Below are positions 4,344 through 26,567 of a stretch of 64,000 nt of DNA, piece by piece. Origin of the DNA: Rhynchopus sp. YZ270_cl-10 (Eukaryota); contig OZ037833.1 in assembly GCA_964035575.1 (NCBI GenBank), forward strand, positions 62,001 through 126,000, read 5' to 3'. Every line of letters begins with the position of its first letter. The first letter of the stretch is position 1. The notes beneath the pieces were generated by a model. The model made no database searches. It had not been told where the DNA came from and saw only the letters and a program-made list of their open reading frames with translations. The position numbers and the translations under genes are program-made.

Positions 4344-4680
4344 TGTGTCTTGCAAGGCCTTCCTTGGCTTGCCTTGCTTTTTGGTTTTTTGTATGATTTG
4401 GCTTAATACTCTGCATAGTGGAGTGGTGGTGGTGGTGTGGGTAGCTAGGTGCAAAAGAGCGGACAGGGACAGGATGGTATGGGAAGTGCTTAGAACTCAC
4501 AGCAGCCCACGACGATAGATTGTCTTGCAGAGGACTGCGTTCTCTACCGAACAGCCTGAACGGGTGTGACAGTGAAACATATTAGGTGACGTAGGAGAAC
4601 GTCGCTTGCTGTTATTGTTATCCTCATCAGGATGGATGCGATGAATGAATGTACGTAGAACCAAAATAGAAAAGGGGTGC

Positions 4681-4821: not shown

Positions 4822-7800
4822 TCAATCTGAAGAACAGAATTCGTGCACGAGTTGAGAGTGAAAGTCTCTCGTGGCGAGCGGTCTACGTAAATGCTGAAAT
4901 TCGTCACACATCCAGTGCGCGTAGCCCTGGTGCTGTGAGAACGCGACACTGCTGCGCGCAGCGGTTTTGCAAGCACCACAGTAATGTAGTTGACACTCGT
5001 TACATGTAAATACTGAGCAAACTGTGCCAAACCCGACTGGAGTGGACGAACATGAGTCACACTCGAACACATCCACCTCGACTGACTGCAGGCAATGTCC
5101 CTGACGGCACTGCGTCGATATCTGCGGAGAACAGTGAATGTGAGAAAACATACCACAACACGTCTGCATACCTCAAGGCGGTCGTCTGCTTGCCACATGA
5201 GTGCGTCCTTCAAGGGTGTGTCACATTCCTGTTTCAAAATAGTTTCGGGACAACAGAACTAAACATACGTTGCACTTGCCTGAAACCGAACACTTCAGAC
5301 ACAAGAACTTGAACGGACACCCTTCGCACGTTAGGCAGTTGCCTGTTTCAAGTGGAAATGCGCCGCAGCCTTCGCACGAGACGTGACCCCCCCATGGTTG
5401 TGACGGGCACGTGTCAGAAGACGATGCGAGGGGAGGGAGCAACAGTGTTATTATCTTCTGAGCCCTTTCGGCGACAGGCTGGAGTGTCTTAACGTGCTTC
5501 TGCTTTGTCTGCTTGGGAACACTGTGCTCGCACAGACCCAGCACGCCAAGCACGAAGCTGATGCTCTGCTGCGAGCCCACCACCTCCAGGAGCGTCGGGA
5601 GCACTGTGATCTGCACCGCACGCTGCCGCTGCAGGGCAGTCAGCACTGCGCTGTCGTTGCGGGTCAACGCATCTAGCGCCTTACGCAGGGTTCCAACCGA
5701 AAGCGACACCGGCGCTGCATCCACAGTGCTTGGCAGGAGACCGATCTTGAAGCACGCCTGTTCCCCCGGCACCCACACCGCCGCAAGAGGTGTGTCGCTG
5801 TCTGCAAGCTTCACACGCTTCAGCTTCGGCTCGCCTCCCTCTTGCCTCGCACCAACCTGCGCAGACATGCGGCGTGCAGCGACTGCTGCCGACACTGCGT
5901 CACCTGAAACCGTCACATGCCCCCCCACAACAGCGACCTCGCACCCCGTCTCCGTTGCCACAACGTATGCACCACGCTGCCTGCGGATTGCGTCTTTGCG
6001 TGCGAAGATCGCCCTGCAGAGATGTGCCCTGAAGACCTCAAGGTCGTAGCGTGCGAGGGCGATGATGTGGCGCCACTCCTCAAACACACCACGCACGTGG
6101 CCTCGCACACGCTCCACACACTTCGCCTCCAGCGAAGATGCAGCACCACCCTCGCCCTCGCTCCCTGCTATATCCGACAGGAACCTCTCTGCACTGCGCT
6201 CCCGCACAGCCACCTCCTCCATGCACCCAGCCACGTACTGCACCGCACGACCCAGACACCGGTGCGAATGGCGCGACGCAGTTCTGACCAACACCCGCGT
6301 CTGGTCAGTGAGCACCGAGAGCAGCTGCTCGTCTATGGTACACAACGTTTTGAGCTGCGTCGCAAGCTGCACTGCACCTGGGACACCTGGGAGTCGATCT
6401 GAGGGGACGACACGGCATGAGAATGGGTAGGACAGCTTCTGCAGTGCGAGGCCGCCACCGAAGTAGGCACTCACTGTGACAGGAAGGGGACGGCCGAAGG
6501 GGCGGCCACCCTGCAGGACCGAGGTCAGCCAGACACGCACGACATCGGCAAAGCCGCCACCCTCGTCCGCAGCGCACGTCGCGTTGACGATGCTCGCAGA
6601 GAACGTCCCCGCAGGCACAGTGCCTGTGCTCATGGGGTACACAAGGTAGTTAGGCACCACTGCGATGACGTTCTCGAAGGTGCGTTTTATTTCCTGCGGT
6701 CTGCGCATGTCGCCGCTGATGACAGCAGCCGCGTTGTCGAAGACGTGGCTCGTTTCGTCCGCAAACATGTCGTCGCTGTCGAAGGACGCAGCCTCCCTGC
6801 CGGACTTCTGCTTATCGCGCCTCGGGAAGCCTTCAAGAATGCGGACGGAGCAGTGAAGCGCACCACAGCTGAGCACCTCGCCAAAGGTACCGCAGGGGAC
6901 CTTCGCGTTCGTGCCTGCTGCAAAGGCTGCGTAGGAGGCGAACCCTTGGTCGTCGTGCGGGACCACCATGACGACCTGCCCGACCTGCGGGAAGGTGTCC
7001 TCCAGTGCAGCGGAGTTGCACCCGAGACACATGCCCAGAACCGCCTTCGCGACGTTGTCGTTCTGCATCTTCATCAAGTCGTGACGTAGCTTCTCGTGTG
7101 CAGGATACTGCCCCTGCCCTGCGTCTGTTGTGTGTGCATCCAGCTCCGCAACAACGCCGCTAATCAAAGGCGAGTGGAACGCATCCACACCCGCCCACAG
7201 CACCTCCACACGTCCGTGCATCGCAGACGCATCCAAGGCTACACTCCTAAACCCTTCATGCACGACACCCGCACCCTCACTTCCCCCCAGCGCCTCGTCC
7301 GCAGAGTGCAGACAGCCCGCACTGCTCAGAGCCTCCCCCCGAACAGGGTGCATCTCCGCAGGCACCTCCACTGTGATGCGCGAATACGTATCGTGGGCAC
7401 GTGCCCGGGCACGTGTCTCTTCATTTGCAGCCTTGAGCGTGGTGTACCTCTGCACAACCCCACGGAACATGCTGCGGAACTGTGCATTCGCATACGGTGT
7501 TCCGGTGACGAGGAGCCCCGTCGCCGTGAGACGCACCTCCTTCACACAGGACCTACTCAACACTGCGTGGGTAAACCAAAGCTTGCGGAACGCAATCGTG
7601 AACTCCTCCTCCTTCGCGCCCCCGTGGTCTGCGTCGAAGACAGGGACGTGGATCGCGTCTCTACGCAGCCTGCTGTGCGGCCTCTTTCTGCTGTCCTCAT
7701 TTTGGAAAGCGCCGAGCGAGAAAGAGAGTGCGTCGAAGGGCTGCGGGGTGAAGAGCTCGTTCATCAGTGCAGGTGCGAGGGGGAGGTGCTCCGTGCGTGC

Positions 7801-9775
7801 GGTGTGCGTCTGCTCGAGGAGTGTTGCCGCAAGGTCCAAGGGAGCGATGGTCGTGTCCTCTGCATATGGACCACCTTCCGCCACAAAGTGTTCGTCCCCT
7901 GGGAAGCCATGCAACGAAGCACCCACCGACCTCGCAAGGCACATGATCGACCACACAACCTCCTTGCACTCTGCTGCCTCAGTGGGCAGACATGCAGCAC
8001 CGTCACTACTCACTCCATTGGTACAAACGCCCTCGCTTCTGCGCCTGAAAAGACAAAAAAAAGGTAGTGCGGCAGATGTGAGCGTTGCATACGTTATACT
8101 CCTGCAGTTCGCATCCACAAGCACTGCCCCTTCCCACCACTCAAGCGCACTGCCGTCAAGGGAAAGCCTCAGTGCCACCGCACCCCCTGGGCTTGCATAG
8201 CTCTTCAGCACGACAACCTGCGTATTTTATGTTTTTTTCTGACAATTTTGAGATATGTTGCCATACCTTTCTGGGCCTGCATTTATGCAAGACTTGCTGC
8301 GTCATTGTCAGCAGGTTTGCCACCTCTGTGCGTGGTGCGAGAACGATGACATGGTTCTGCCTTGCAGGCTGCAGCACCTTCGCGAGGTTGACACACCGCT
8401 CCACTGACGGGATGTGCCCCTTGAAGTCGACTGTGCAGGCATGGCCTGAGAGGGACTTCACTTCGCCAATCTCGCCGTCTGGGAGCTCGGAGGCTTCTGG
8501 TGCAGCGCTGTCCTCCTTCCATGAGTCCACGAGTGCGGAACGTGCTGTGTCGTGACGATGACGCACACGAACCACATCTTCACGGCGGAGAATTGGTGTG
8601 CGGCGTGCCTCCGGGTCGCGCCAGGCAACGTTGCTGCCCTTCTTCGCGTCGGCCTCGCTTGCCACCAGCGCCACCTCGACACCGTTGTAGTAGCACACAT
8701 CGACCCCCATAGCGTCGCAGCGCTGCAGCACCCAGCACAGCGCAGGCGGGCCACATATGCTGCTTGCCTCTGCAGCTGCAAAGCGCGCGGTGCTGAGGCC
8801 CTGTGGAATCGCCTGGCGCACCTCCTCCTCAAAGAGCGGCCCCCTGCAGAGGTACAGGTCCGCTTCGTGCACGTCCCATGGTGTGGACACTGCGTAGCAT
8901 CCTGAAGTGGTGCACACCTCGGCAAGAAGGCGCGGCACTCTGCACAGCTCCTGCAGGACAGTGTCGGGGACGTTCAGGACAGAGCAGACGACGTCCGTGT
9001 TGGAGTTGCTGCTGTGCTGGAGAAGTGCCGCCACCTTAGTCGCTGCCAGCCCCACACACATCGCCACAGTGCACGTCGCATCGTACAGCACTGCTGTGTC
9101 TGGGAACGCAGCGAACACAGCACCCGCCAGCGCAGCCAGCTCAGACGCACCCCAGGTGGCGTGCACCGTCGTGAAGACAACCTTGCGGAGGCACGCCCGC
9201 ACAGCAGCCGCTGCCTTGGTGCGCTGCACACTGCTCCGCACCTCGAGACTGACGTGCAGCACTGCGTTGTCGGCAGCCACTGCAGGCTCTAACACGACAG
9301 AGGGCATCAGAAGGGCCTGCTCCTGATCAGCGCGCACCACACAAAAACAGCCCCCACACGACTCCGTCAGGCTCTCCCCAAGGCACATAGGCACGCCGTA
9401 CTCCGCAAGACTGATGTGCCCTTCGGAGGGGAAGGAGTCCTCCTGTGGAAGCAGCGCTGCGACAGTGCGCACTGCGATGCGTGTGGGGGACATCGCATGC
9501 TGGGGTACGGTGGTGCTGCTGGGGCTGGTCATGTGGCATGTCACGTTGTCGACGTCGACGTCAAGGCCCACCGCAGCACTCTGCCACTCCACCCACGACG
9601 CAAGCCCGGCAGTGCAGTCGGCAACCGACGCAGTACCTATATCCCTGCTCGTGCAGCTGACAAGTGCCGACACGGACGCAGCGCATTCAGAAGACGTCTC
9701 AGACACTTCCGCATCAGCCGAGGCAAAGTCCCAAGCAAAGCTGCTCCACACCTTTTTGTTCCATATGTCCCGCAT
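4822..9775 (-). CDS. Hypothetical ~1588-aa protein with C-terminal ZZ-like/C1-like zinc fingers and possible KH-like and SH3/KOW-like segments; 5 exons (9775-8267, 8217-8093, 8044-5269, 5228-5172, 5121-4822)
   Basis: Four GTATG...CAG introns join ORFs 8156..9787, 5221..8211, 4809..5237 and 4822..5169 in frame (total 4767 nt, a multiple of 3). Motifs are HVSCEGCGAFP..CLTCEGC..FLCLKC and CRQGH..CDSC..CNEC..YCGAC. Confidence 0.8.
5122..5171 (-). other. 50-nt spliceosomal intron (phase 0)
   Basis: GTATGC...TTCTCCGCAG; splicing gives ..DRLE|ISTQCRQGH in frame. Confidence 0.8.
5229..5268 (-). other. 40-nt spliceosomal intron (phase 0)
   Basis: GTATGT...GAAACAG; splicing gives ..GKCN|ECDTP, completing a CxxC. 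Confidence 0.8.
8045..8092 (-). other. 48-nt in-frame, stop-free intron (phase 2)
   Basis: GTATGC...TTTTTTTTGTCTTTTCAG with a strong pyrimidine tract; length is 3n, so the ORF also reads through. Confidence 0.7.
8218..8266 (-). other. 49-nt spliceosomal intron (phase 0)
   Basis: GTATGG...ATACGCAG, AT-rich; joins ..CRPRK|VVVLKSY. Confidence 0.85.
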
Positions 9776-9789
9776 GTTTTTTTGCACGT

Positions 9790-9862
9790 CTGTGCCAGGT
9801 GTGGTACGGTTTTCAAAAATTGAAGAAAAAAAGGTGAGAAATAAAAAGACCCGTTATTTTTA
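9790..9862 (-). promoter_or_regulatory. Putative trans-splice acceptor (pyrimidine tract plus AG at 9791-9790) 14 nt upstream of ATG 9775
   Basis: TCTTTTTATTTCTCACCTTTTTTTCTTC...GGCACAG|ACGTGCAAAAAAACATG. Confidence 0.45.
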
Positions 9863-11735: not shown

Positions 11736-13617
11736 TGATAGATAGTGCGCCTCAATCGAACCAGAAACATTTTTTTTTATCTACCGGGGAAATAAACGAG
11801 CGGCATTTTCAGCCACATCATTATATTTTGTTTTTTTCTTTCAAAAACTTCAGCACATAACGCTGTTGGTTTTTTTTGATCGTACGGCACACAAGGTGCC
11901 ACAAGGTTCTATGATTTTTTTGACAAAATAAGCGAACACAAAAACCAGCGCAAAGAAAAAAGGTGAACAAATATTTTATCTGAAAGTGAGTGTTTAGCCG
12001 AGCTTATTTCACGAGGTAGATAAAAAAAAAAAAACAAGAAAACAAGAAAATAAGAAAAACGGAACGAAAATAACAATAGGGAAAGACGCTTCGAAGTCTC
12101 AGATACAGGACCCACCACAGGTACGTATTGGGTAGGTTCGAATCGAAAAAACAACGAAAAAGCGTTAGACAAGAACCAACAAAGTGGGATCAATGTCGGA
12201 AAAAAAAATAATATCGCGAAATAGAAAAATGTAGAGTACAAATTTGAATGGTTGATGCGCACAAAAACGACGCATCCCCACGCCCACAAAAAAAAAGGGC
12301 AAATGACAAATTCATATACTTTCAAATAAAATTTGAAAGCATTAGGGAAGTGTATAAAAAACAACAACAACCCATATTTTTTTTTTAAATTTGGCAAATG
12401 AAAAAGACTGAACGAAAAAGAGAGACAGTATTTATTTTTGAGAATTACACACCCGATTCACTTCCATCATACGATCCAAAAGAGCCGGTTCCTTTCGGAT
12501 TGTATTATTCTTTTTGTGTTTCGTTCCTTCAAAAATGTCACAACAATAACACGTTTGGCTTTTGTTTCTGGGAGACACACAAGGTGCCAAGTTCCTTATT
12601 TCTATGCTCGTAAATCACCCTGTGCCTGTTTGTCATGTTGTTTCCCGTGCAATACATGGGGAAACGTTTCGCACTCGAAAATATATGAAGACTGACAGCA
12701 GCAGGTAACAGGGGGTTGTTTTGAATTGAGACGTTTGCACAATATTCTGGTATTTGACAAAGACAAGGAGAAACGTAAGAAGGGCAACACGCTGATGGGC
12801 TATGTGCAGTCAGAGCAAAAAGAAGCATTGATTTTGTATTCATGCCTCAAAGGAAGGGATAAAAAAAACGTCACAAGAGCGCCACGACGAGCGTGCCAGA
12901 CAGAGCAAAATAAAATATGAAAAAGACACGACCGGTACTCTGCCCAAGAGACCACTCAAAACCCAAGAAGGACCTACAATTACAAACTCATTTGTGTCCA
13001 TCGTATCGGGGAGAGCTAAAAGAGTACAGCACAGAGAAAAAACATCCGAGCATAGTACTCTGGACCACAAGAACTCTACCGGACGAAGCCATCTGTCTAA
13101 CAAATATTTTTGAAAGATTTATTGTAGTTTCGTTATATTTTTTGTTTTTGAAAAACCAGCGTGTGCGTAAGAAAAAATAAGATTCATATACTTTCAGTTC
13201 ACAGAATTGAAAGCATTTGAGAGAGGGGGCAAAAAATGGAAATTTTGGTGGTCCTGACAACCCCATTTTGCGGGGTTCATGCGGTTCGTGCCGCTCGTAG
13301 GGTTTTTCATCCCCACCACAGCCCGGGATTGGCTCGGAAATGCCACAAAACACTGTTTTTTTCACCCCCTTATGCACTGTTTGAGGTGCGCTTTTTCCCC
13401 TCCCCCCCTGAAACACATGTCTTTTTTCAGAAAAATTTCTAAAAGTTAGCGCGAAGCCTGCATGTATCGTACAAAGCTCTCAATAATTGTGAATGCATCA
13501 CACGTTAAGAATCTTGGTCTCACGCAGGCTCAACATCTCCGGAGCTAAAATGGAATAACGCCTCTTTTGAAGTCAAACTAATTAAATACTCACTCCTGGA
13601 GGGATCGCCAACCACCT

Positions 13618-16600
13618 TCACATGACAACGGCACTGCTGCGGAGGGGCTCGTTACGTTCCAGCTGATCTGCGATGGCACACAGGACGTCTGCGCTGCGTG
13701 TGCCTGCCGCCATCTTGCGGAGGCTGCGATAGTCCTGCTGCACGAATGCGTGGTGGTACGAAGCAGACCACGTTTCGCAGGCCTCCTCCGTATCTTTGCC
13801 CCACTCAGAGTCCTTCAGCACCTCCGCACGCAGCTGGTACAGCGTGATCTCGGTGGTCGGTATGCTCGCCGCTCCGAAGACGATGGACCTGCGGGGGCCC
13901 TGGCTTCCCGTCAGCATAGCGTTTTGGTTCAGCTTCCACACAGCTACTGGCCGTGCCTTCGACCTGTGAGAAATGTCCGCATACAGGTGTGGGTGATTCG
14001 GCATGCACGTCATCAGGCACAGCACATTCAGCTCCAAGGCCGCAAGCACGACCTGTGGGCACAGCGCAATAGCGTCGCTGAAGATCGCAACAAACTTCTG
14101 AGCGGAGGTGCCGACCTTCCCGTGCGAGAGCTGCCCAGCCACGAGGCCGAGGTATATCGAGAGCAAAGGTGTGTGGATGGCGGAAACAAGGGCAACGAAG
14201 TGCTGAGAGGACTCCGCGTAAGAAGAACACCTGCGTGCCGCATTCCACGAGACGTTTACCTGGTCTCCCGAGAGCGAGTTGATGCTGCCGTCCGTGCGCT
14301 CGAGGCTGAGGGAGATTGTGCTCAGCGCAGCGTTGAAGTTCTGCAGGAAGTTCTCCTTCTGCGGGTCGTGCGACACGACACGTACGCAGCCAACTATCCC
14401 GCGCGACAGGTTGAGTGTGCTAGGGGCCGCAAGTGGCTTTTTTTCACGCCCCATCTTCAAGGAGCTCTTCGACGAGCAGCGGCTCGCGATGCTGAACTTT
14501 TCGCCACGCATGACAGAGCAGCGCGCTGAAAGCGCTTCGGGAACAAGCAGGACGACGTCGTGCACACCGCTGACACCACGCAGGGTCACACCCGAACGGT
14601 CAATGGCGTAGACAGGATGGTGGTGCGTGAAGTCAGACGTCTTCAGCATCGCGAAGAACTCTGACGTGACGCAGAGCGCGCCACCGACGGAGGCAGACTC
14701 AAGGCGCGCTGCCTTGTTGACGGTGCTGCCGGTGTAGTCGTAGCGGTTTGTGATGTCGTTCATCTCTGCGTTCAAGTCGCCAGCGTAGAGACCAATACGC
14801 GTGCGCAGGCCGTGCCACCCGTCGCCCCGACTCGACTGCGGCAGGTCTTCCAGCTCCACCGGCCACGCGTCACCCACGTCGTACAACGCCTGCAACACTG
14901 ACAGGCCAAAGAGGACTCCCGCCTCGTGCTCGTCAAAGGCAACCATGAAAGAGTCGCCAATTGTTTTCACCTCGTAGCCACCACACTTCGCAATGCACTT
15001 CCGGATGGCGCGGTTATGCAGCTGCAGCGCTTCCTTCATCGCATCGGGTTCAGCCTCCCACGTCGCTGTCGAGGCTTGGATGTCTGTGAAGACGATTGTC
15101 GCGAAGCCGTCCATACCAGGCGGGGAGACTTCTGCTTGGTGCGCGTCCTCTTCGCCTGTTTCGTCGTTGTTGAAGAGGGACTCAGGGAGGAAGGGCTTGT
15201 AGCGGGCGAGGTTCGTCATGAGCTGTGAGAACAGCAACTTGAGCTCCTTCACGAGGTCGCTGTCGTCGACACGGTCGCCCAGTTCGCGTTCGGCACCGTC
15301 GAGGTCGAACTCAACGAGACGGTTTGCGATCTTCTTTGCGACGTCGACAGCCTGCTGCTTCTCAAGGCCTGCGATGTAGTCGTAGGAATGCCCACGGTGT
15401 TCGTGCAGGTCGATACCACTGTACTCGCATTCCTCAGAGACCCTGCTCCCGATCGTCTTGTGGATCACGGCGTACGACACTGCAGAGAGAAGCAGGCACC
15501 ACGCACTCACAGAAAGGACAGCAATGCACTGCACGCCCAGCTGTGCCCCGCCGCCGCCCAGGAAGAGCCCGTAGTCTTCGCCAAGCGTGTCGTCCTGTGT
15601 CGCAGCACGGATGCGGTCGGCGTCGCAGAAGAGGCCCACAGAGATACCGCCCCAAACACCACCTCCCCAGTGCACTGCGCCGGCAGACACCACGTCGTCG
15701 ATCTTCAGGCGGCGCGTGAGCCACATCATACCAAAGTACACCGGCACACTCAGCACGCCGATGACAAGGGAGTACACAGGCGCAACATAAGCACAGCCCG
15801 CGGTGATGGAGACCAGCCCCGTGAGCGCACAGTTGCATGCATCGCCAACGTCGTAGTACCCGTTCATCACACGTGACACAAGAATGCCCGACAGCGTTGC
15901 TGCTGCGCTCGCAAGAATGGTCGTGACGCACGCATTTGCGGCTACAAGCGAGCCGCCGCCGCTCATTGATACAACGCTGCCCGCATTGAAGGCGAACCAC
16001 GAGAACCACAGCATGAGCGTGCCCACAGCAAGGTGGAAGCGGTTGTGCGGCTGCACGATCTCCTGGCCCTCTTCGGAGAAGACGTCGCAGCCGTTGAGCT
16101 TGCGCTTCCCTAGCAGCGTGCTGAAGATTAACGCGCACGAGCCGCCGAAGCTGTGGATCACAACACTTCCGGAGAAGTCGAGGCAGCCGTTTGCCAGAAT
16201 GCGGTTTGATGAAAAAGGACTGAGCCAGCCGTCCGCACTCCATATCCAGTGCGCGACAAGGGGGTACCCAAACGACGCGATGCACACAACAAACGCAGCG
16301 TACGCACCAAGGCTGATGCGCTCCGCCACCGCACCACTCACAATCGTCGCGGCCGCAGTCATGTATGTGTACGAGAGGAAGAAATGACCCTGCTTTCCGT
16401 ACAGGTCGTCGGACGGGCTTGGGCTGAAGAAGAAGACCTGCCCCTCTGTGCCCAGGAACTCGTTCCCTTCTGAGAAGGCCAATGCGTACCCGACAGCCCA
16501 CCACGCGACGGCGCTGATGGAGCAGTCCATCATGTTCTTGTACACAATGTTCACGACATTGGTGGATCGCACCGATCCAGACTCAAGATAGCAGAAGCCC

Positions 16601-18375
16601 ACCTGCATCAGGAAGACAAAAATCCCGCAGGTCAGCGCCCACGTCGTGTCCAGGTCGGATCCCAGCGCAGACAACTGCTCCTCAGCCTCTTGCATGCGGG
16701 TGACAAGCTCACTAAAGGTTTCGTTGGCAAGATTCAAGGAAAAGTCGTTCACATGCTCCACATTATCTGCCGCTACTGTGCTTGCCCCCACCAAGGCGAA
16801 GTAGAACACCAGGCGCAGCACCCACCAGTAGCTACGTGCGTCCTCCAGCCGCTCTCCTACTGACGACAGAAACGACCCTGCCTTGAGCGGGTGCACGCGC
16901 ACACCTGTCATCTCCTTCGGGCCCCTCGGGGACCAGTGCACTGTACTCTGGTCCTCAGTATTTGTACGGACCGCTGAGGTCCGCACTGCGTACTGGTGGA
17001 GGCGATTTGCAGGTGGCGTTATATTGTCTGTTGTCTTGTCGTTCGTTTCGGTCCATTCGGTAGTCGGGTATGGGTCGCTGCGATAGGAGTACTCTGTCTC
17101 CACATCTGTGCTCTCGTCGTCGGCACCGATGCAGGCGAAGTGTGCACCGTGCTCAATTTCGTCCTTTTGCACTTCCCACCCGAACAGATGTTTGATCGCC
17201 AACATGCACACCACCATCCAGAAGGCGGCCCACGCTGCAATCACGACGATTGCTAGCGCAACACTCCCGAGGGCTTCGAGCATCGGCTTTCCGGGGAGGA
17301 CGTCGTCACGTTTGAAGAGCACTCCTGCGAAACCACCCCAGACTGCGGGCACAAGACGCGCGGCAATGCTGTGGAGGCGGTCCAACTGCTGTGTGTCGAG
17401 TGTGTGCACACTGTGGAAGAGGAGTGCTGCAACGGCGCCCACGACAGGCGCAAACTGCGTCCGTATCGTCACAGCGGAAATGCTGAGTGCACTGATGCCT
17501 GCCAGCGTGGACCCCAGCAGGTGCTCCACGTCATAGAACTCGAACACCTCACGCGACAACGCAGTCGACGTCACTGCCGCCACCGCCACCCCCAACGTGA
17601 ACGTCACCAACACCGGAGCGCCCTCCGTCGCCTGCAACGCCTGGCTCCCATACCCAAGGAACCCATACACCGAAAACCACGTCATCAGCACACCACATCC
17701 AATGAAAAACGTATTATGCCCACGCCTCCGCTCCGACTTGGGAAACATGACACACATCACCAGACCACAGACACCACCGAAGATGTTCATGACGAGGTAC
17801 CCTCCGTCGATCACTCCGGTGCCTACATGACTTTCGTAGTGTGGGTTCAGCCAGCCGCCGTGCGAGGTGACCCAATGTGCAGCAGCTGGGTAAGGGAAAA
17901 TCGAGAGAAGAACGGTGAGGAAGATAATCGCCTGGACGGTGAGGCGGCCTGAGGCTGCGTCGCAGGCGGCGGTGATTGCGCCTGTTGCGAAGTAGAGGGT
18001 TGCGTAGAAGTGAGCAGACTCGTAGCTCAGGCGGTGCGCGGCCTCTGCTGCGGTACCGTACAGGAAACGCGAGCCACGGTCGCCCACGAACACCGACCCC
18101 GGCTCGTACACCTCAGCAAACCCTGCCACCCACCACGTTAAAGGGATCAATGCCAGAATGAGAAAGTTCTGGTACGTGCATCTCAACACGCCAGCACCAT
18201 TCGCTGAGCCCGCCTTAAAGAACGCCGACGCAGTGTGCACAAAGAACGAAAACGTCCCGCCTGTCAGGAGCCACATCCCCAGCTGGTCATGACGTGCCTC
18301 GCCAGCCCGCACAAGGTAGTCCTCCAGGGCGGTCGCCAGCTCCGCTAGGGAAGTGGCATTGTACTCATGGCCCAT
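13618..18375 (-). CDS. Ammonium transporter (Amt/Mep/Rh)-adenylate cyclase fusion: degenerate Amt + Amt + class III AC + degenerate cyclase domain (1585 aa, intronless)
   Basis: Amt motifs FLMQVGFCYLESG, IVSGAVAER, AHWIWS..GWL, DFSGSVVIH, WFAFNAGS, IDD..SAGAVH, E..GIDLHEH. Cyclase motifs TIVFTDIQAST, YEVKTIGDSFMVAF, GLRTRIG, YDYTGSTVNKAARLES. First in-frame ATG at 18375. Confidence 0.95.
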   Translation of the reverse strand: MGHEYNATSLAELATALEDYLVRAGEARHDQLGMWLLTGGTFSFFVHTASAFFKAGSANGAGVLRCTYQNFLILALIPLTWWVAGFAEVYEPGSVFVGDRGSRFLYGTAAEAAHRLSYESAHFYATLYFATGAITAACDAASGRLTVQAIIFLTVLLSIFPYPAAAHWVTSHGGWLNPHYESHVGTGVIDGGYLVMNIFGGVCGLVMCVMFPKSERRRGHNTFFIGCGVLMTWFSVYGFLGYGSQALQATEGAPVLVTFTLGVAVAAVTSTALSREVFEFYDVEHLLGSTLAGISALSISAVTIRTQFAPVVGAVAALLFHSVHTLDTQQLDRLHSIAARLVPAVWGGFAGVLFKRDDVLPGKPMLEALGSVALAIVVIAAWAAFWMVVCMLAIKHLFGWEVQKDEIEHGAHFACIGADDESTDVETEYSYRSDPYPTTEWTETNDKTTDNITPPANRLHQYAVRTSAVRTNTEDQSTVHWSPRGPKEMTGVRVHPLKAGSFLSSVGERLEDARSYWWVLRLVFYFALVGASTVAADNVEHVNDFSLNLANETFSELVTRMQEAEEQLSALGSDLDTTWALTCGIFVFLMQVGFCYLESGSVRSTNVVNIVYKNMMDCSISAVAWWAVGYALAFSEGNEFLGTEGQVFFFSPSPSDDLYGKQGHFFLSYTYMTAAATIVSGAVAERISLGAYAAFVVCIASFGYPLVAHWIWSADGWLSPFSSNRILANGCLDFSGSVVIHSFGGSCALIFSTLLGKRKLNGCDVFSEEGQEIVQPHNRFHLAVGTLMLWFSWFAFNAGSVVSMSGGGSLVAANACVTTILASAAATLSGILVSRVMNGYYDVGDACNCALTGLVSITAGCAYVAPVYSLVIGVLSVPVYFGMMWLTRRLKIDDVVSAGAVHWGGGVWGGISVGLFCDADRIRAATQDDTLGEDYGLFLGGGGAQLGVQCIAVLSVSAWCLLLSAVSYAVIHKTIGSRVSEECEYSGIDLHEHRGHSYDYIAGLEKQQAVDVAKKIANRLVEFDLDGAERELGDRVDDSDLVKELKLLFSQLMTNLARYKPFLPESLFNNDETGEEDAHQAEVSPPGMDGFATIVFTDIQASTATWEAEPDAMKEALQLHNRAIRKCIAKCGGYEVKTIGDSFMVAFDEHEAGVLFGLSVLQALYDVGDAWPVELEDLPQSSRGDGWHGLRTRIGLYAGDLNAEMNDITNRYDYTGSTVNKAARLESASVGGALCVTSEFFAMLKTSDFTHHHPVYAIDRSGVTLRGVSGVHDVVLLVPEALSARCSVMRGEKFSIASRCSSKSSLKMGREKKPLAAPSTLNLSRGIVGCVRVVSHDPQKENFLQNFNAALSTISLSLERTDGSINSLSGDQVNVSWNAARRCSSYAESSQHFVALVSAIHTPLLSIYLGLVAGQLSHGKVGTSAQKFVAIFSDAIALCPQVVLAALELNVLCLMTCMPNHPHLYADISHRSKARPVAVWKLNQNAMLTGSQGPRRSIVFGAASIPTTEITLYQLRAEVLKDSEWGKDTEEACETWSASYHHAFVQQDYRSLRKMAAGTRSADVLCAIADQLERNEPLRSSAVVM

Positions 18376-18408
18376 CACTACAGGGCGAGAGGGAAAGAAC
18401 TTCCAGAT

Positions 18409-18510
18409 CTGTAGTGTGATGTTGGAGAAGGCGAGGGGTGAGGAGTATGTGGTAGAACCACAGCGAAGTCGGGGGGGGAGAAGGCTTAAAGAAAGAAAAC
18501 TGAAGATGAA
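18409..18510 (-). promoter_or_regulatory. Putative trans-splice acceptor region upstream of the Amt-AC gene
   Basis: Long C/T-rich tract ending ..CACACTACAG| at 18409, 33 nt before the ATG. Confidence 0.5.
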
Positions 18511-18948
18511 TGTGCCTCTTGAGCACACACGTCTTTCGAAAGTGTCTCTGTACCCCAAAAAGGGGAGGACCAAAATCTTAAACACCAACTTAAACAGAAG
18601 TCCAAGAGGGGGCTCAGTTGATTTATAGGTGCATCACCCCCACCTTAATGTTTCAAAGAAAAGCTTAGTGAAGGGCAGAGGTTGCATTGGGTGGAGGTGT
18701 GCAGGACACTTTGTGTGGACAGATATTCAAAAAAGAATTCGCTTTTCTTATTGTTTGGTTATTGTCGCTACAGCTATAAAAAATATGACTCATTTTTGAG
18801 CCAAAGCGTTGTGCTTTTGGCTAGCACGTTCGTCCCCACCCCCCCTCACTCCCCCCAACCCCTTTCCCATCCGTTCCCAACCGCGAACGATTATTTGCTC
18901 TTTCTCTAGGTTTTGCAAAAACAAAACAAAAAAAAGGTGCGTGACATC

Positions 18949-19524
18949 CTATTGGGAACTGTTTCCTTGCGGTGTGGTGTCTGCCACGACTGACACATCC
19001 TGGTCCCCTTCCGGTTGGTCACCACGCTTCGACCATGATGCAAAGTCAATTTCTGTTCTGATTCGCGTGTCACCCTGTGAAGTTAACAAAATAGTTGTTT
19101 TTTTGACCAAAAAAAAAAATACCAAATCAAACCGACAAAAGCCGACTGAGAATCAAAAATAGTTCATCTCTCCACATACCTGCAGGAGCCCCATGATGTG
19201 CCGCTTCTCTGAGGTCGCGGTGATCTTCTCTCTGTCAAGCTTCTGGACGCATGCAGAGGCTTCGTCGCGGAAGACGTGGCACTCTGGGTTCAGCGAACGC
19301 GCACGCCCCTCCATACACCGCAGGTACGTCTTCCACTTTTCCTCGCAGCAGAAGCGCAGCCGCTCCGTCACCTTCAGATCGATTGCCTGCCGGTCCTCGG
19401 TCCCAAGCAGCGTCACCGAACGTCGGTACGCAAGCGTCTCATCTTCCGCCATCACTTCTCGCATGTGGTTGCGACCCACCACACCACACTCCCGCTCTCC
19501 AATTGTCCCCTGTGCTTGCCCCAT
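18949..19524 (-). CDS. Twin-CX9C mitochondrial intermembrane-space protein, Cmc1/COX-assembly-like (156 aa; exons 19524-19180, 19074-18949)
   Basis: C-EEKWKTYLR-C and C-HVFRDEASA-C (two CX9C motifs). A GTATG intron joins LLQ|GDTRIR...SSQ* in frame. Confidence 0.7.
19075..19179 (-). other. 105-nt intron (phase 0)
   Basis: GTATGT...TTCACAG; an alternative acceptor at 19146 cannot be excluded. Confidence 0.65.
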
Positions 19525-20760
19525 TCCAATTTCAAAAAGATTCCCAAAGGCCCTCAAACCTTTTAGGGATAAAGAGGTTAGTAGTGTGTCTGGTGGTGGT
19601 GGTGGTGGTGGGGAGTGTTTTGAAATCCGTTCGTGAAGCAATAAATAAATCCGGGGAGCGAGGGATATGGGGAGTCTGTGAGGTGTTAATGTGGTGAGCT
19701 TCGTGTGAACACCAAATAAATAATCCGGAATGCAGAAGAAATTTGCGGAACATATTTCTCCATTAGTTGGTGTGTAGATAGGAGGGAGAGAGAGGAAAAA
19801 ATGAATAAAAAGTGAAAGGTTGGAGAGCGTGCTTTTTTATTTGTAAATGAGGTGGGTTTTTGGGAGGTGTTTTGTTGTGTGATTCAAAGAACGCACACAA
19901 AATAACCTCCTTTTAGGGAGATAAGAGATCCCCCCGGTTTTGAAGAAATAAACTTTTTTTAGGAGAAGACGAGAGACATCTTTCGCAAAGGGAATCCATT
20001 GCAAGAAGGCACCGTCTTTTGCTCCTTTTTTCCTTTTTCTTTAAAAACAGCATCGAAAAAAATACGAATCTCGTGATCTAGATGTTATTGATTTGTTCGT
20101 TAGCTCTAAGGTGGAAACTCAACTTAAAAAAAGGCTTAACGTTAAAGTGTTAGAAAAATGATGAAAAATAAAAACCGTGAGGTGGGCGGGATCCTCTCAA
20201 CCTCACAACATAGAACTGCGCAAAACAGAATTCAATAAAAAACCGGAACAAAAAAAAAAGTGTTGAACGCAAATCAAAAACACTGATAACAAAAATTGTC
20301 AAACGAACCAAAAGCTTTTGTCAGATGATCCCCAAGGCTGTGCTAAGCTTTGATCGCCTTCAAAAAAAGAGCTTTTTTAAAAGCGTTCCCAAAAAAAAGA
20401 TTGCAGATTGTTCCAGAACTAATTGTCACTGAGGTAGAAAAGGGAAAAAAAACGTTCGTCGTTGGTTTCTTTCCCAAAAAAAAATCAAAGAAAAATACTA
20501 TCCAAATAAGATGATCGTGAACAAGACATTTGTTTGCATAATACACCAGGAAACCGAAAACCGAAACTTGGAAAAAGGACAGACAGCCAACACAGCGGTT
20601 TTTCTCAGGGCTTTGCACACCCATCAACCCATCTATTGCGTTGGGACATCAGTTTTTTTTTTATATCAGTCTAAATGGGAGCCAATTACCCCCCCCCCCT
20701 TGAGGGTCATATTCGGGTTTTGGGGGTAATATAAGGGGGGGGGGTAATAGACACCTACCT

Positions 20761-20878
20761 GTGTACGTGTGTACGTGTGTACGTGTGTACGTGTGTACGT
20801 GTGTACGTGTGTACGTGTGTACGTGTGTACGTGTGTACGTGTGTACGTGTGTACGTGTGTACGTGTGTACGTGTGTAC
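20761..20878. repeat. (GTGTACGT)~15 microsatellite
   Basis: Direct read of the sequence. Confidence 0.95.
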
Positions 20879-21602
20879 CGTATTTGCGGGTTTGCGTATA
20901 CCTGGGTACCCACGGTACCCGGTACCAATGGGATATTTTGGTGATCCCCAAGGCGATTTGCGGCCAGGCACGCCCACCTTAGTGGATTTTTTCACCTAAA
21001 TTTAAAAAAATCCCTGCTCAGCCCCTCTCGTCCTGGGCTGGACGTTAAATCGCATCCGTGGACCCTTTTGTGGCACTCCTCCTGGAACTCTATGAAGGTC
21101 TGACCTGAGGGTAAAAGGTGCTGGGAATGCTACCCTGGGTGCCGAAGGCAGGCACATTACATGTGCGGAGGGAACTACTGGAGCCCGAGCCAGTGAAGCC
21201 CCCTAGGAAACTGGGGTACGGATTGGAAGAGACCTTGCCGGTAGCCGGGAACCCTCCCTGGGCTAGTACAATGACGAAGTGAGTGTACCCAGTACCCAAT
21301 GCCGTGACTTCACCGGCTAACACCGGAAAACACCGGCAAAATCAGGTGGAATATACATAAGTACATCACGGGGGGTAGGGAACAGATAGCGCCGCAGGCG
21401 CATGGTACGCAACTTTTTTCTTTTTCTTTCCCCTTTTCTCTGCTTTCTTTTGATTGCACGAGCCGATTGCTCTCCACGGTGGGGTCACATGTGTGTCCAC
21501 AGCAAATCCTTAAGGATTTCCTTCTACGTGCACGGCGGGGTCCGCACACCCCGAGGGTCCGTAAAACGGCATGTTAGGACACTCCCTCTTTACGGAGTGT
21601 CA

Positions 21603-21695
21603 TTACGTACCCTAGGGTACGTAATTACGTACCCTAGGGTCCGTAATTACGTACCCTAGGGTCCGTAATTACGGACCCTAGGGTACGTAATTACG
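21603..21695. repeat. Palindromic 22-bp minisatellite (alternating CGTAATTACG / ACCCTAGGGT), left subterminal array
   Basis: ~4 units; mirrored at 24090-24148. Confidence 0.9.
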
Positions 21696-22020
21696 GAGCC
21701 TCCCAGGGAAAGGGACTCTCGAAAATTTTTTTTTGCCCCCGTTTAGGGCTAATTTCGACGATTTGAGGCCATTAAAAGCAAAATTTGGCACTTTTGAGCA
21801 TCTGTGGGGGTCTAAAACGCAGTTTAGAGTACCACAATTTTTAGTGGGTTTTACCGAAAACAAGTCAATTTTTGGGCCGAAAAAAAATTTTTTTTGACAT
21901 CACAAAATTGCCCTTGGTGGGCCTATGTGTCCTCAATGAAATGCAAATATAGCTATTTTTAACTTTCACACACAATTTTAACGGGTTTTACCTGTGTACC
22001 TGTGTATCTGTGTACCTGTG

Positions 22021-22124
22021 ACTGGGTACTGGGTACTGGGTACTGGGTACTGGGTACTGGGTACTGGGTACTGGGTACTGGGTACTGGGTACTGGGTACT
22101 GGGTACTGGGTACTGGGTACTGGG
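22021..22124. repeat. (TACTGGG)~15 microsatellite, G-quadruplex-competent
   Basis: Direct read of the sequence. Confidence 0.95.
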
Positions 22125-24089
22125 CACCCAGAGAAAGCACCTTAAAAGCAGCGAAGGCGCAGGTTACGGGGAAGACAAGGTATGTAATTATGTTTAACTT
22201 TCAGTTACTAGTGAAGATTGAACAAAAAAATGCCGCATATTTCAACTTGTTCGTGTTTTCAACTCGAAATAAACGCGTAATGTTCACACTATTAAATAGC
22301 TATTTTTTTACGCACCAATCATTTTGTGTCACCTCATGACATGAAGGAGGAAATAGAAACAAAGCATTTTGAACACACTTGCGGTTCTGGGGACGAACCG
22401 CGCTGCAGAGCCACTCCTCAGGTCGAGGTGTGTGCGTTTCACCACAACCTCTCCCATGGGTTTTATCGTGTGATGAGTGTTACGTTTCTATTTGGTTCCA
22501 CAGGCGCTCGTTACCTGCTTCACATAATTCACCTCGCTTCACTCGAACCATTTGTGCAGCAGGTCACTCTCTCGACCTGTAGCGTGGAAAAAATCTATCT
22601 TATTTCACGGCAATAAATAGCCTTTTTTATTAACCTCACCTTTCCCGACTACTACGTTTGTATACCATAACTTAATCACACCCCACATTTACACTTATAC
22701 AGGATCGTGAAGTCTGAACTGCACCCGCGATTGCGATGAGAAGCTTCACCGCGGTCCGACATTCAACAACTCAAAATCTACCCGCATCAATCTATTCTGA
22801 TTTTGCGGACGAAGATCTGGGTGGAGGGGGGTGGGTACACTTAGTCAGTCACTGCTATAGCCATTAACCAAGGGAGCATAGCTAGTGCAAGAAATTCGAC
22901 TTTGGAAACCTTCCGGAAAGTCTGTCCTCTGCTTGCGGAGGACTAGACACAAGAAAATATTGCGTTCCCCCAGAAAACCAGTGCACATTTCACACTCCTT
23001 GTGGGTGGTCTTGTTGCCTTTTTTGTCAACAGTAATTTTGGCCCAGGCATGCTCTTGAAGCATGACAATTTAGTGTGTATGGGGCAGGGTGTTGTTTTGT
23101 TCTGAATTCTCTTTGTTATAACATCTAAGTCAATCGCGGGTGGTGGTTTGTGTAGCGTGAGGCACTCTTTTTAACAAACTTCCTGCGGCTGCTAAAGTGT
23201 TATTTCTTCGGATTTAACAACGTACAGCGTAACATAGTGGATTAGCCTGGTCGACACAACCTTTGATAGCTATGGGATAACCAACCCCCTTCGACCCCTT
23301 GTGGGTTCACTGAACAAGCCCTAGTGGTAGTTAAACGCGATTGACATTTACATTCCTAAAGATGAAAGAACAAGACAACACTTCTGTACCCGCGCATCAA
23401 AATTGTGGAAAACTTTGCACCCCAAACACCCTCAACAACGCCCGCCAAAAGGCGCCCCTTGTTGCTGGGACTTGGTTCTCATTGATACACTGCACAGCAG
23501 GCATTCCTCTGAGTCCAACGCAGTTTGGCCTGTCTGCAGCGTTGCACCGAAGGTGCACGAAGACAGGGTCTGGTGGTAAATTTTGCGTCTCGCATTCCCT
23601 CAGGGAAGTTTAAAAACTCTTGAGCTCGGTTTGTTGTCAAAGAAATATTCCACCATGTATTGAGGAGGGTAAGACAGTGTTCGCAGTTTCTACTTGATAG
23701 CATTACAACATTTAACTTCTCCACGGGGGTCTTGGGCCGTTCACTCGGTTATACCTTGACTACCGGAAGATATTCTTGAGGCCTTTTTGGTCTCTAGAAT
23801 ATCCGGTCTTCCCGAACGGAGGCACACTTTGTGTGTTACTACGACCTGGCAATTTCCAGCAGTAGGTTAAGTAATCTTTCTTGTAAATTGTTGGATCATT
23901 ATCTCCTCAGTGCATGGTGGAAGACGTCTTTGACAACTAACCGAGCTCACGACTTTTTTCGGTATGTAACTTGGGATAGGCCCACATGATCATGGTCTAT
24001 CATGTGGTACCTGTGTACCACTCGGTTTGCTCCCAGGGCTTTTCGACCAGCAGTCACACATCCAAACAGTGATTTCCCACCTTAGACCA

Positions 24090-24148
24090 CGTAATTACGT
24101 ACCCTAGGGTACGTAATTACGGACCCTAGGGTCCGTAATTACGGACCC
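24090..24148. repeat. Right subterminal palindromic array of the CACG element
   Basis: cgtaattacgtaccctagggtacgtaattacggaccctagggtccgtaattacggaccc. Confidence 0.9.
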
Positions 24149-24317
24149 GGGTCCGCACTTGAGGGTCCGTAAAGAGGGTCCGTAAAATTTACGGACCCTC
24201 GGGTGTGTGGACCCCGCCGTGTGGGACCACCTAAAGGGGGGGGGGGTAATAGACACTGAAAAATCTCGTATTTTCGGATTTTGGAAAAAGGGGGTAATAT
24301 AAGGGGGGGGGGGGGGG

Positions 24318-25450
24318 TAGGGGGGGGCAAAACCTTCAGGACGGGTGAGGCATTTTTGGAAAAAGTGGTTTTGTGAGCAAAAAACCTGTCAACACCCCTC
24401 ATACCCCCCAGAAATGGGTCAGAAACACCCTGAGACCCGAAAATCCATGATTAGGGCACCTCAGAATATGAAAAAATGGCCATTTTTTGAGAAAAAAATC
24501 AAAAAAACAGCAAAATTTCGAAATCATGACAGCTGCTTGGGCACGAAACTACCCCAAAAATGTCCTGTGAGTCCATTCCGACCTGTTTTGGACACTTTAG
24601 GCACTTGTTTTGGTGTTTTTTTTGGTGTTTTGAGGTCAAAAAAGATCCCCTGACTATCCCCTGGCAGCCCTGGGCCGCGACTTGCGCCCTGCTTTTAGAC
24701 CCACTCTGGGCCAAAAAAATGGGCGAAAACCTCCGAAAAAGCACTCTGGGAGCCCAGATAGTTCCAAATTTCCACCGCACACCCTCAAAAACACCTCAAA
24801 AACATGTCAGAAAAACATTTTCAAAAACACACTTTTTCAAATAAGTCATTATGGAACCTGCCCAGATGAACTTTTTGAAAAAAGTGTGTTTTTGAAAATA
24901 TTTTTCTGGCATGTTTTTGAGGTGTTTGGGTGGGTTTCTGGTGGATATATGGAACTATCTGGGTCCCCGGAGTGCTTTTTCGAGGGTTTTCACCCATTTT
25001 TTGGCCCAGAGGGGGTCCAAAAGCAGGGCGCAAGTCGCGGCCCAGGGCTGCCAGGGGATAGTCAGGGGATCTTTTTTGACCTCAAAACACCAAAAAAACA
25101 CCAAAAAAGGCGATAAATGTGTTCAAAACAGGTCGGAATGGACTCGCGGGACATTTTTGGGGCATATTTGTGCCCAGACAGGCCTAATGATGACAAATTT
25201 TTGCTTTTTTTTTTGAAATATTGGTCAAAAATGGCCATTTGACCAAAATGGCCCAAACGGCCAAAATGGTCTATTTTTGCTATTTTTTTCCATTTTTTTG
25301 TATCTCTGGGGTGTCTCACCTATAGAACACCCCCAAACCACACCCCAAAACCATCTCTGACCCGAAATTTTCGGTGGTTTGCGGGTACTTTGCACGTAAA
25401 TCCAAAAAAATCGAAATGCCTCAAAAAAATAGGGGTTTTGCCCCCACCTA
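24318..25450. repeat. Long imperfect inverted repeat (foldback), centre ~24857
   Basis: Arms ~24474-24848 and ~24866-25240 are clearly reverse-complementary, with weaker match out to 24318/25450. The ORF track shows mirrored peptides (e.g. SRAQVAAQGCQGIVRGSFLTSKHQK on both strands). Confidence 0.9.
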
Positions 25451-25475
25451 GGGGGGGGGGGGGGGTAATTGGCTA

Positions 25476-25704
25476 CACGACGGTGATGTACAGTACATTA
25501 CAAGTGAAGTTACATGTAACGTTACAAGTGAAAAACCGTTACAAGTGAGTTACAAGTGAGTTACAAGTGGGATACATGAATTACAGGCAAAATCAGGTTG
25601 TAACTGGTGGGTTACAAGTGAGTTACAAGTGAGTTACATGTAACAAAAGTTACATGTAACTCACTTGTAACTCCACTTGTAACACCCGTTACATCACCGT
25701 CGTG
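25476..25704. mobile_element. 229-bp MITE with CACG termini, 15-bp TIR and TA flanks
   Basis: TA|CACGACGGTGATGTA ... TACATCACCGTCGTG|TA; the interior is made of GTTACAAGTGA/GTTACATGTAAC repeats in both orientations. Confidence 0.85.
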
Positions 25705-26567
25705 TAGGGGGGGGTAATTGGCTCCCATTTAGACTGATACATTTTACAGAAAATGTAACCGAACTTCGGAAGCCAAAAAAAAAATACTTTTACATAAAAA
25801 TGTAAAAAGCACTTTTCCGTTTTCTCAACACATTCAAGTTGTGACAAAAAGAGAAAAGCAACGTACTGCTCTGAATGCTGTAAAGCATTCCTTTCTATAT
25901 ACGTTGCAATCCCCAAGCACCCGCATTGCAACCACGAAGGCATTGATATGAAAGCAAAACAATACAAAATGGCGCAGAAGTCTGAAGAGAGGTCAACATT
26001 TTGTTCTTTAGGACTTTCGTGGCGCTGTGTGATACACACTGCTACAAATTGAGCCGGAAAAAAACAGGTGAAAAAACCTTTGAAAGAAAGAGAAATTTGA
26101 TAAGAATAATTCCTAATTGTATGGCGCCATTCTGCTACCCATATATGGGTACTTGGGGTCTAAAGGGTTAAAAGAAAGAGAAATTTGATTACTTGTGGAC
26201 ACATCTCTTACACCTCTTGGTGTGCTCTTGGTGGACATAACGCGCAACGCCTCTCGCGGACGGTACGGTGTTATTGAACACCTGACATAACAACACACAA
26301 AACAAACACAACAAAAAAACGCAACGAAACAAAGGAATTTTGACACCAATAACAATATGTGTCCGACAAAACAGAACCTCTGCTGGTGGTGGGGCGGCAC
26401 CACGCTCCAGCCACGAAAACAAAACTAAACAGAGGAAGACAAAAAGGCTTATAAGATGAACCTAAGCCTCTCGTGCTTTAGTCACCTTACAACAAAAAAT
26501 CCGGGCACGAATGAGAAAACAAAAGGAAGAATTCTTTTTTGACTTGATTATGGTGTTCCCGAAAGGG

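Follow-up and report, generated by a model that had tools for sequence, protein, structure and literature searches.

An ammonium transporter fused to an adenylate cyclase in Rhynchopus, a candidate ammonium-regulated receptor cyclase from a diplonemid family

The window analysed here is a stretch of 64,000 nucleotides (nt) from Rhynchopus sp. YZ270_cl-10 (assembly GCA_964035575.1, contig OZ037833.1, positions 62,001 to 126,000 of the forward strand), and its main subject is a gene in which an ammonium transporter (Amt) and an adenylate cyclase are fused in one open reading frame (ORF). The fusion is real. The minus-strand ORF encoded, in order, a degenerate Amt domain, a hydrophobic helix, an intact Amt domain, a linker, an adenylate cyclase and a dead cyclase fold (Table 1). 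Pfam recognised Ammonium_transp in two stretches (E 9e-124, the best match covering amino acids (aa) 579-998) and Guanylate_cyc in one (aa 1092-1251, E 2e-21). An earlier note on this DNA, made from the sequence alone, had described a single ORF with an Amt domain, a linker and a cyclase, and had predicted these Pfam matches; all of this held. The dead first Amt, the hydrophobic helix and the dead second cyclase had been missed, and the two dead domains shape the mechanism considered below.

Integrity and domain architecture of the gene

The GC content at third codon positions was flat over the length of the ORF (0.66-0.80), while total GC was 0.43-0.44 in the 2-kb windows at 10-14 kb. Coding-like long ORFs of the window all lay on the minus strand, and the pyrimidine-rich tract with AG just before the ATG is likely a spliced-leader acceptor, judging from its composition. 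This arrangement fits the expectation for a euglenozoan gene cluster (PMC10161547; statements attributed to this and the other cited papers refer to the accessible parts of their texts).

Polycistronic RNA is trans-spliced in euglenozoans (PMC10161547), which lends some weight to the idea that an internal trans-splice site allows the two parts to be expressed apart, or that the fusion is an artefact of assembly or gene calling. Either is hardly credible given the following evidence. A single contig of sequencing run X1, which may be the source sample, spanned 13347-19500 with 0 differences, and a contig of run X3 (14211-16568) crossed the Amt-cyclase junction, also with 0 differences; run X4, from a second study, had sequence on either side, but its two listed pieces ended at 15182 and 15327 and did not bridge the junction. 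Only one AG preceded by an 85% pyrimidine tract occurred inside the ORF, at 17887, within the first Amt domain. Finally, 12 other proteins shared the architecture, transcript-derived ORFs included.

Table 1. Features of the fusion gene, with positions in the window (pLDDT, predicted local distance difference test)
Feature	Position	Strand	Basis or remark
Whole ORF (P0001), 1585 aa	13618..18375	minus	no internal stop
Pyrimidine-rich tract and AG, 2 nt 5' of the ATG	18378..18415	minus	pyrimidine fraction 0.66 over 35 nt
Amt domain 1, degenerate, aa 32-419	17119..18282	minus	Pfam PF00909, E 1.3e-28, profile 2-396/399
Disordered linker, aa 415-513, predicted cytoplasmic	16837..17133	minus	pLDDT < 50; similar spacing in P0002
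Hydrophobic helix, aa 518-536, basic start and small-residue end	16768..16824	minus	
Amt domain 2, intact, aa 575-1000	15376..16653	minus	Pfam, alignment, structure model
Predicted N1/N2 ligands Gln591, Glu598, Asn614, Asp617, Thr677, Ser680	16336..16605	minus	alignment to 8qj3
Helical linker, aa 1000-1077, conserved end motif NLxxYxPxLP	15145..15378	minus	three helices, pLDDT 82-93
Class III adenylate cyclase, aa 1088-1285	14521..15114	minus	Pfam, PDB match, structure
Degenerate second cyclase-homology domain, aa 1322-about 1515, and helical tail	13621..14412	minus	catalytic residues absent

Amt domain 2 displayed the characters of the Amt/Mep/Rh family, namely the 11-helix fold, the Trp/Ser site (Trp712 and Ser800, aligned with the Trp/Ser pair of the bacterial receptor Sd-Amt1), an aromatic gate (Tyr671/Phe796, with Tyr671 at the first gate position) and the twin histidines His741, ending DFSGSVVIH (16155-16153), and His902, ending DDxxxxxAVH (15672-15670). 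The pore histidines and recruitment-site motifs read from the sequence in the earlier note were thus the right ones. The structure model of the domain superposed on Af-Amt1 (Z 57.5, root-mean-square deviation (rmsd) 1.6, 390 residues aligned) and on the bacterial receptors Ks-Amt5 and Sd-Amt1 (Z 54.6, rmsd 1.8-2.0, 387-394 aligned). Ammonium receptors are defined by the ligands of two ammonium sites, N1 and N2 (PMC11152129), and the six predicted ligands of domain 2 matched Gln22, Glu29, Asn45, Asp48, Thr104 and Ser107 of the published ammonium receptors (PMC11152129). These ligands are conserved with Ks-Amt5 and Sd-Amt1, which bears out the analogy to bacterial Amt fusions drawn in the earlier note, and all six were kept in 23/23 diplonemid cyclase-side Amt domains. 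Near the site, Phe594, at the wall position of Tyr27 in Af-Amt1, and Lys613 were also conserved, as was Tyr692 slightly downstream, and Asn848 occupied the position of the exit-narrowing Asn269 of Sd-Amt1. By alignment, an ammonium site is available in domain 2.

Amt domain 1 kept a predicted intact fold (pLDDT mostly 70-95), so the fold family was still matched, but the alignment placed Asn and Arg at the pore His pair, Thr and Gly at the Trp/Ser site, and Lys at the N1 ligand Glu. Site residues were gone from this domain in 7/7 compared copies. A receptor cyclase answering to another signal (methylamine, another small amine, K+ or protons), or one in which the dead first Amt binds the ligand, is improbable. 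It would be favoured by Cys618, which stands for Phe/Thr beside the N2 site, by Tyr671 in the gate, and by the change of the N1 Glu to Lys or Arg in 4/7 compared first domains. Against this, the N1/N2 ligands and both histidines were invariant in domain 2, whereas domain 1 showed no conserved polar pocket and a pairwise identity per helix of 18-37%, versus 37-78% in domain 2.

The hydrophobic helix between the two Amt domains is predicted to be either a 12th membrane helix or an internal signal peptide that resets the second Amt to N-out. A comparable segment preceded the last Amt in 21/23 relatives with at least 60 residues upstream (4/27 fell below this length and were excluded). Behind the segment, 19/23 relatives carried an N-glycosylation sequon, versus 2/26 in a cytoplasmic control; this favours a loop on the outside and, for domain 2, the usual N-out topology. 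The composition of the helix was signal-peptide-like and the equivalent segment in P0244 formed the N-terminus, so cleavage of the chain into two polypeptides is possible.

The linker continued directly from Amt helix 11 and was short, structured and conserved in the alignment; it is placed like the cyclase-transducing element of adenylyl cyclases (PMC9552081). The segment, helical in the model, was not detectably HAMP.

Behind the linker, the class III adenylate cyclase had a complete catalytic set: the two metal-binding Asp (Asp1098, Asp1141), the adenine-specifying Lys1137 and Asp1213, and the transition-state Asn1220 and Arg1224, carried by the motifs FTD (1096-98), VKT (1136-38), GDS (1140-42), YDY (1212-14) and NKAAR (1220-24), all at the places given in the earlier note. 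Each catalytic residue was conserved in 120-122 of 123 alignment rows. The trypanosomatid-type character proposed there also stood, with T. brucei GRESAG4 as closest PDB sequence match (E 4e-26) and a matching fold (Z 25.0, rmsd 2.0, 201 aligned).

The second cyclase fold, within the C-terminal 260 residues, had no Pfam match by itself. Its relationship appeared in an hhalign comparison with the protein's own cyclase (probability 75%, E 2.6e-5), in a cyclase-like order of strands and helices (pLDDT mostly > 90), in Foldseek alignments of two-cyclase proteins across about 490 columns, and in Atlas cyclase clusters matching it at 0.91-0.92. The fold carried neither of the two half-site residue sets. 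Intramolecular pairing of the C1/C2 kind was rejected because of these residues and, weakly, because of the model, in which the cytoplasmic part fitted the C1/C2 pairs of AC9 and sAC at an rmsd of about 20-22 Å, with uncertain domain placement (predicted template modelling score (pTM) 0.59).

A diplonemid family with several outputs

Sequence comparison identifies the gene as one member of a diplonemid-wide family. Three word-based searches each scored about 8000 candidates and listed 120 matches. In one of these listings the first 23 matches formed this family; at least 13, including the query, carried both Pfam families. No non-diplonemid protein with both families was present among the matches listed, and the named close relatives were all diplonemids. 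With 12 other proteins of this kind among these matches, the gene is not a singleton. Carriers of the fusion included D. papillatum KAJ9470023.1 and KAJ9448406.1 and four complete Trinity ORFs of Artemidia motanka, the latter indicating that a relative transcribes the fusion into a single message.

In members from Namystynia, Artemidia and Hemistasia, two Amts were linked with either a protein kinase or Ion_trans/cyclic nucleotide monophosphate (cNMP)-binding domains, so that the Amt module, found with cyclase, kinase and channel domains, appears to have swappable outputs. Both Amt copies mostly kept their residues in these three genera, while the first copy was decayed in nine ENA-type proteins including the query. 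In P0007, P0008 and P0018 (Namystynia, Hemistasia), Amt-Amt-linker-dead cyclase was followed by a cNMP-binding domain in chains of 2500-2800 aa; Ion_trans was also present in P0007 and P0018, making these fusions of an ammonium transporter with a channel of the cyclic-nucleotide-gated type. Amt domains with a Ser/Thr/Tyr-type protein kinase occurred in P0015 and P0017 (Namystynia, Artemidia) and in P0032 and P0037 (ENA/JGI), the diplonemid and ENA/JGI cases falling in different parts of the Amt tree.

The cytoplasmic module (linker, cyclase and dead cyclase) was also found without an Amt, in 113/361 collected proteins; these 361 were gathered by similarity to the query, so the count gives abundance and not share. 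Its N-terminal partners included dCache, Kelch, peroxidase/cytochrome b5 and other domains. The same module behind so many other N-terminal domains implies that the Amt sits in the sensor position. As an observation in its own right, P0024-P0031, P0039-P0068 and P0123-P0233 made up a large diplonemid family with the linker-cyclase-dead cyclase core, in which the N-terminal domains included peroxidase with cytochrome b5 (P0025), dCache, Kelch and PA/laminin G; a literature search found no paper on this family.

In a FastTree tree of the cytoplasmic module, the 13 Amt-bearing rows among 126 fell in three places, at least two of them forced by starred branches, and this scattering points to repeated hook-up or loss. 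The Amt tree (83 rows, quick IQ-TREE, LG+G4, midpoint root) placed 47 family rows on one side of a branch marked 99* and ten bacterial fusions on another, with an unfused D. japonicum Amt outside the fused family. Because the family Amts group apart from the bacterial fusions, the tree suggests that diplonemid Amt fusions arose separately from the bacterial receptors, in a thin sampling that omits Ks-Amt5 and Sd-Amt1 and with long-branch warnings among the decayed domains. No bacterial Amt-cyclase ORF was found among 75 Amt ORFs at 94 loci chosen by Amt-kinase likeness, with a diplonemid-type cyclase profile. A metagenome scan gave 14 distant loci, all single-domain, and an Atlas search with Amt and cyclase reached scores of 0.78 only.

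Ten relatives had the order Amt-Amt-linker-dead cyclase, with no active cyclase between. Together with the loss of catalysis in two paralogues, they give some room to a reading in which the cyclase of the query is silent or regulatory, for example held off by the dead cyclase, and the protein serves as dimerisation partner of other family members. This is very unlikely, as all six catalytic residues were present here and in 10/12 Amt-cyclase rows.

Proposed regulation of the cyclase, and other features of the window

The reading we favour, with a probability of roughly 0.6, is a direct ammonium-regulated receptor adenylate cyclase acting via inter-chain cyclase dimers, by analogy with the bacterial receptors and the trypanosome cyclases. 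Ammonium would move through the intact Amt past its His pair and bind in the predicted N1/N2 pocket, and the bound ammonium would move the C-terminal helix, as inferred from Sd-Amt1 and Ks-Amt5. The shift, relayed by the helical linker to the cyclase, would alter the pairing of domains from two chains. Trypanosome cyclases require dimerisation (PMC6027212), and by extension activity here would need a head-to-tail dimer. The active site would lie between chains, because the second fold lacks the half-site residues and was not packed as in C1/C2 in the model. The dead cyclase fold could then be a scaffold or a brake. The dead first Amt would pack on the intact one, probably as a non-conducting trimer protomer and, more speculatively, could bring the cyclases per trimer down towards two. 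Conserved N1/N2 ligands, and the many other sensor domains carried by the same module, strengthen the receptor reading. A transceptor that transports as well as senses, the term used in the earlier note, is a more tentative reading, Asn848 lying where Asn269 narrows the exit of the non-transporting Sd-Amt1; the roles in prey sensing or life-stage control suggested there are likewise tentative.

Several observations weigh against this reading. The published receptor signature, Q-x6-E-x15-N-x2-D-[F/T]-x54-60-T-x2-[S/T] (PMC11152129), failed in its strict form at the F/T position, occupied by Cys618, a position that acts as a ligand in Ks-Amt5 only (PMC11152129). Moreover, 53 of 115 mostly unfused Amts carried the relaxed signature and 19 the strict one, and plant AMT1 transporters fall in the same N1/N2 cluster (PMC11152129). 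The signature is thus no marker of a sensor, and it is the fusion, with the context in which it occurs, that argues for sensing. Paralogues P0010 and P0011 kept perfect Amt residues and had lost those of the cyclase, and P0244/P0245 nested in a clade beside the query without an output domain, so that Amt conservation is independent of an active cyclase. The linker gave no HAMP match in Pfam at E 1, and hhalign against 25 bacterial post-Amt segments returned a probability of 3% with one helix aligned only. The pTM of 0.59 leaves it uncertain how linker, cyclase and dead cyclase are positioned relative to one another. The two-Amt model, with a pTM of 0.81 over 1075 residues although the domains are joined by a 100-residue disordered linker, points to a fixed packing, plausibly as trimer neighbours, but this may merely reflect AlphaFold's knowledge of Amt trimers.

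The plant cluster and the paralogues with a dead or absent cyclase also speak for an alternative in which the intact Amt functions as a transporter to which the cyclase is simply tethered, with cyclic AMP (cAMP) made near the site of uptake or in indirect response to pH, voltage or phosphorylation. The complete transport pore retained in domain 2 would suit such a role, and acid and osmotic stress activate trypanosome cyclases (PMC6027212). We consider this alternative unlikely in view of the short, conserved and structured linker running straight from helix 11, the place of the Amt in the sensor slot of a multi-sensor module and its joining to several outputs, the exit Asn shared with Sd-Amt1, and the separate unfused Amt of D. 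japonicum.

A wider form of the receptor reading is more tentative, and we doubt it as a whole. It holds that diplonemids built one-component ammonium receptors independently of bacteria, with interchangeable outputs (cAMP, kinase, cNMP-gated channel) and, in the branch of the query, with a pseudo-transporter of the gene's own that fills a place in the trimer. The pseudo-transporter subunit might be freed by signal peptidase at the internal signal sequence, and would leave two cyclase-bearing protomers facing each other, solving the mismatch between the three-fold Amt sensor and the two-fold enzyme.

Among the neighbouring features, the short intergenic stretch downstream of the gene (13180-13355) showed a summed contig depth hundreds-fold above that of the gene and is a high-copy dispersed repeat. 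The largest frame of the window (31203-63998, minus strand) ran past the window end with at least 10,931 aa. It contained EF-hand matches, DUF11 in three stretches and a REJ domain near the C-terminus, in a domain scan covering all but about 670 aa mid-protein and 330 aa at the start; its product is probably surface-exposed. At the end of this giant ORF began a 735-aa frame without Pfam match (29009-31216, minus), whose C-terminus looks by eye like the start of a beta-helix/pectin-lyase-type domain and which probably continues in a later exon. Two long minus-strand frames without Pfam match (5221-8226 and 8156-9853) overlapped by about 70 nt in different frames and may belong to a single gene interrupted by a short intron or a frameshift. 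At the window edge, a secreted-type protein of at least 1498 codons (3-4496, minus) ran past the border and carried a cysteine-rich repeat block and a Pro/Thr-rich repeat. A 123-aa ORF (19153-19524, minus) had two Cys-x9-Cys-like pairs, and we take it to resemble a twin CX9C mitochondrial protein. Nested repeats filled 20600-25750, with tandem arrays of 8, 7 and 11 nt, 22-nt palindromic units at 21577-21722 and 24047-24170, a long imperfect hairpin at 24501-25213 and 47-nt inverted arms at 20664-20710/25693-25739; they resemble stacked non-autonomous transposons.

Comparison with known systems

The principle of an Amt receptor is already known, and databases already contain the architecture described here. 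The earlier note knew of no characterised eukaryotic fusion of Amt and adenylate cyclase, and our literature search, mostly of titles and abstract openings, agreed in finding none described, although Fig. 7B of PMC11152129 may list Amt with cyclase; the main text of the D. papillatum genome paper had 0 occurrences of "ammoni" and "cyclase". The characterised ammonium receptors that carry a fused enzyme come from two bacteria and have outputs other than cAMP. A eukaryotic Amt wired directly to cAMP, if true, would be a G-protein-free nutrient receptor in abundant marine protists.

Sd-Amt1 of Shewanella denitrificans (Amt-HAMP-diguanylate cyclase; PDB 8qj3/8qj4/8qpf; PMC11152129), a non-transporting protein, resembled the query in its C-terminal nucleotide cyclase attached via a helical linker, its N1/N2 ligands, His pair and exit Asn; as predicted for the query, it is a trimeric sensor whose transducer has to pair. 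PMC11152129 leaves open how a sensor that is trimeric can be coupled to a dimeric enzyme, and a tandem with one dead Amt is a natural test case for this. The query differs in being eukaryotic, with cAMP from a class III cyclase as predicted output, in a linker that is not detectably HAMP, in the extra dead Amt and dead cyclase, and in the Cys at the F/T position; its Amt also stood apart from the sampled bacterial fusions, Sd-Amt1 not being in the tree. Ks-Amt5 of 'Ca. Kuenenia stuttgartiensis' (Amt-histidine kinase, 6eu6; PMC5764959) was the best Amt sequence match in the PDB (E 5.5e-45), with the same site ligands and without a HAMP domain, which was not detected in the query either, but it has a histidine kinase output, one Amt per chain and an extra N2 ligand, Thr51, which corresponds to Cys618. 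The query thus has an Amt with a C-terminally fused transducer, as ammonium receptors do, and from its sequence is ammonium receptor-like and not a formal member of that class, because the strict signature is missed at Cys618.

Trypanosomatid receptor cyclases (GRESAG4.1/4.3; 1fx2, 1fx4; PMC6027212) were the closest solved cyclases in sequence and fold, with the same catalytic motifs and activation by dimerisation. Theirs is a Venus-flytrap ectodomain on a single membrane helix, whereas the query has a polytopic Amt and a dead cyclase: Pfam found Amt and cyclase only, and the model consisted of two Amt folds. Mammalian membrane and soluble adenylyl cyclases (PMC9552081) share with it two cyclase folds in one chain, a polytopic part and a short conserved transducer stretch; in the query, however, all catalytic residues lie in the first fold, with none in the second, and the model did not superpose on C1/C2. 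The protein is neither a trypanosomatid Venus-flytrap receptor cyclase nor a C1/C2 enzyme.

The nearest counterparts were the D. papillatum models KAJ9470023.1 and KAJ9448406.1, which shared the order Amt-linker-cyclase-dead cyclase and were 48-49% identical over the searched region. They differed in a first Amt that was partial or absent and in the name "putative ammonium transporter 1 member 5", which leaves out the cyclase. As of 2018, no natural ligand of a euglenozoan receptor cyclase was known (PMC6027212). Here the sensor domain predicts the ligand and homologues exist in a model diplonemid, D. papillatum, so that ligand-driven activation of this type of cyclase becomes testable.

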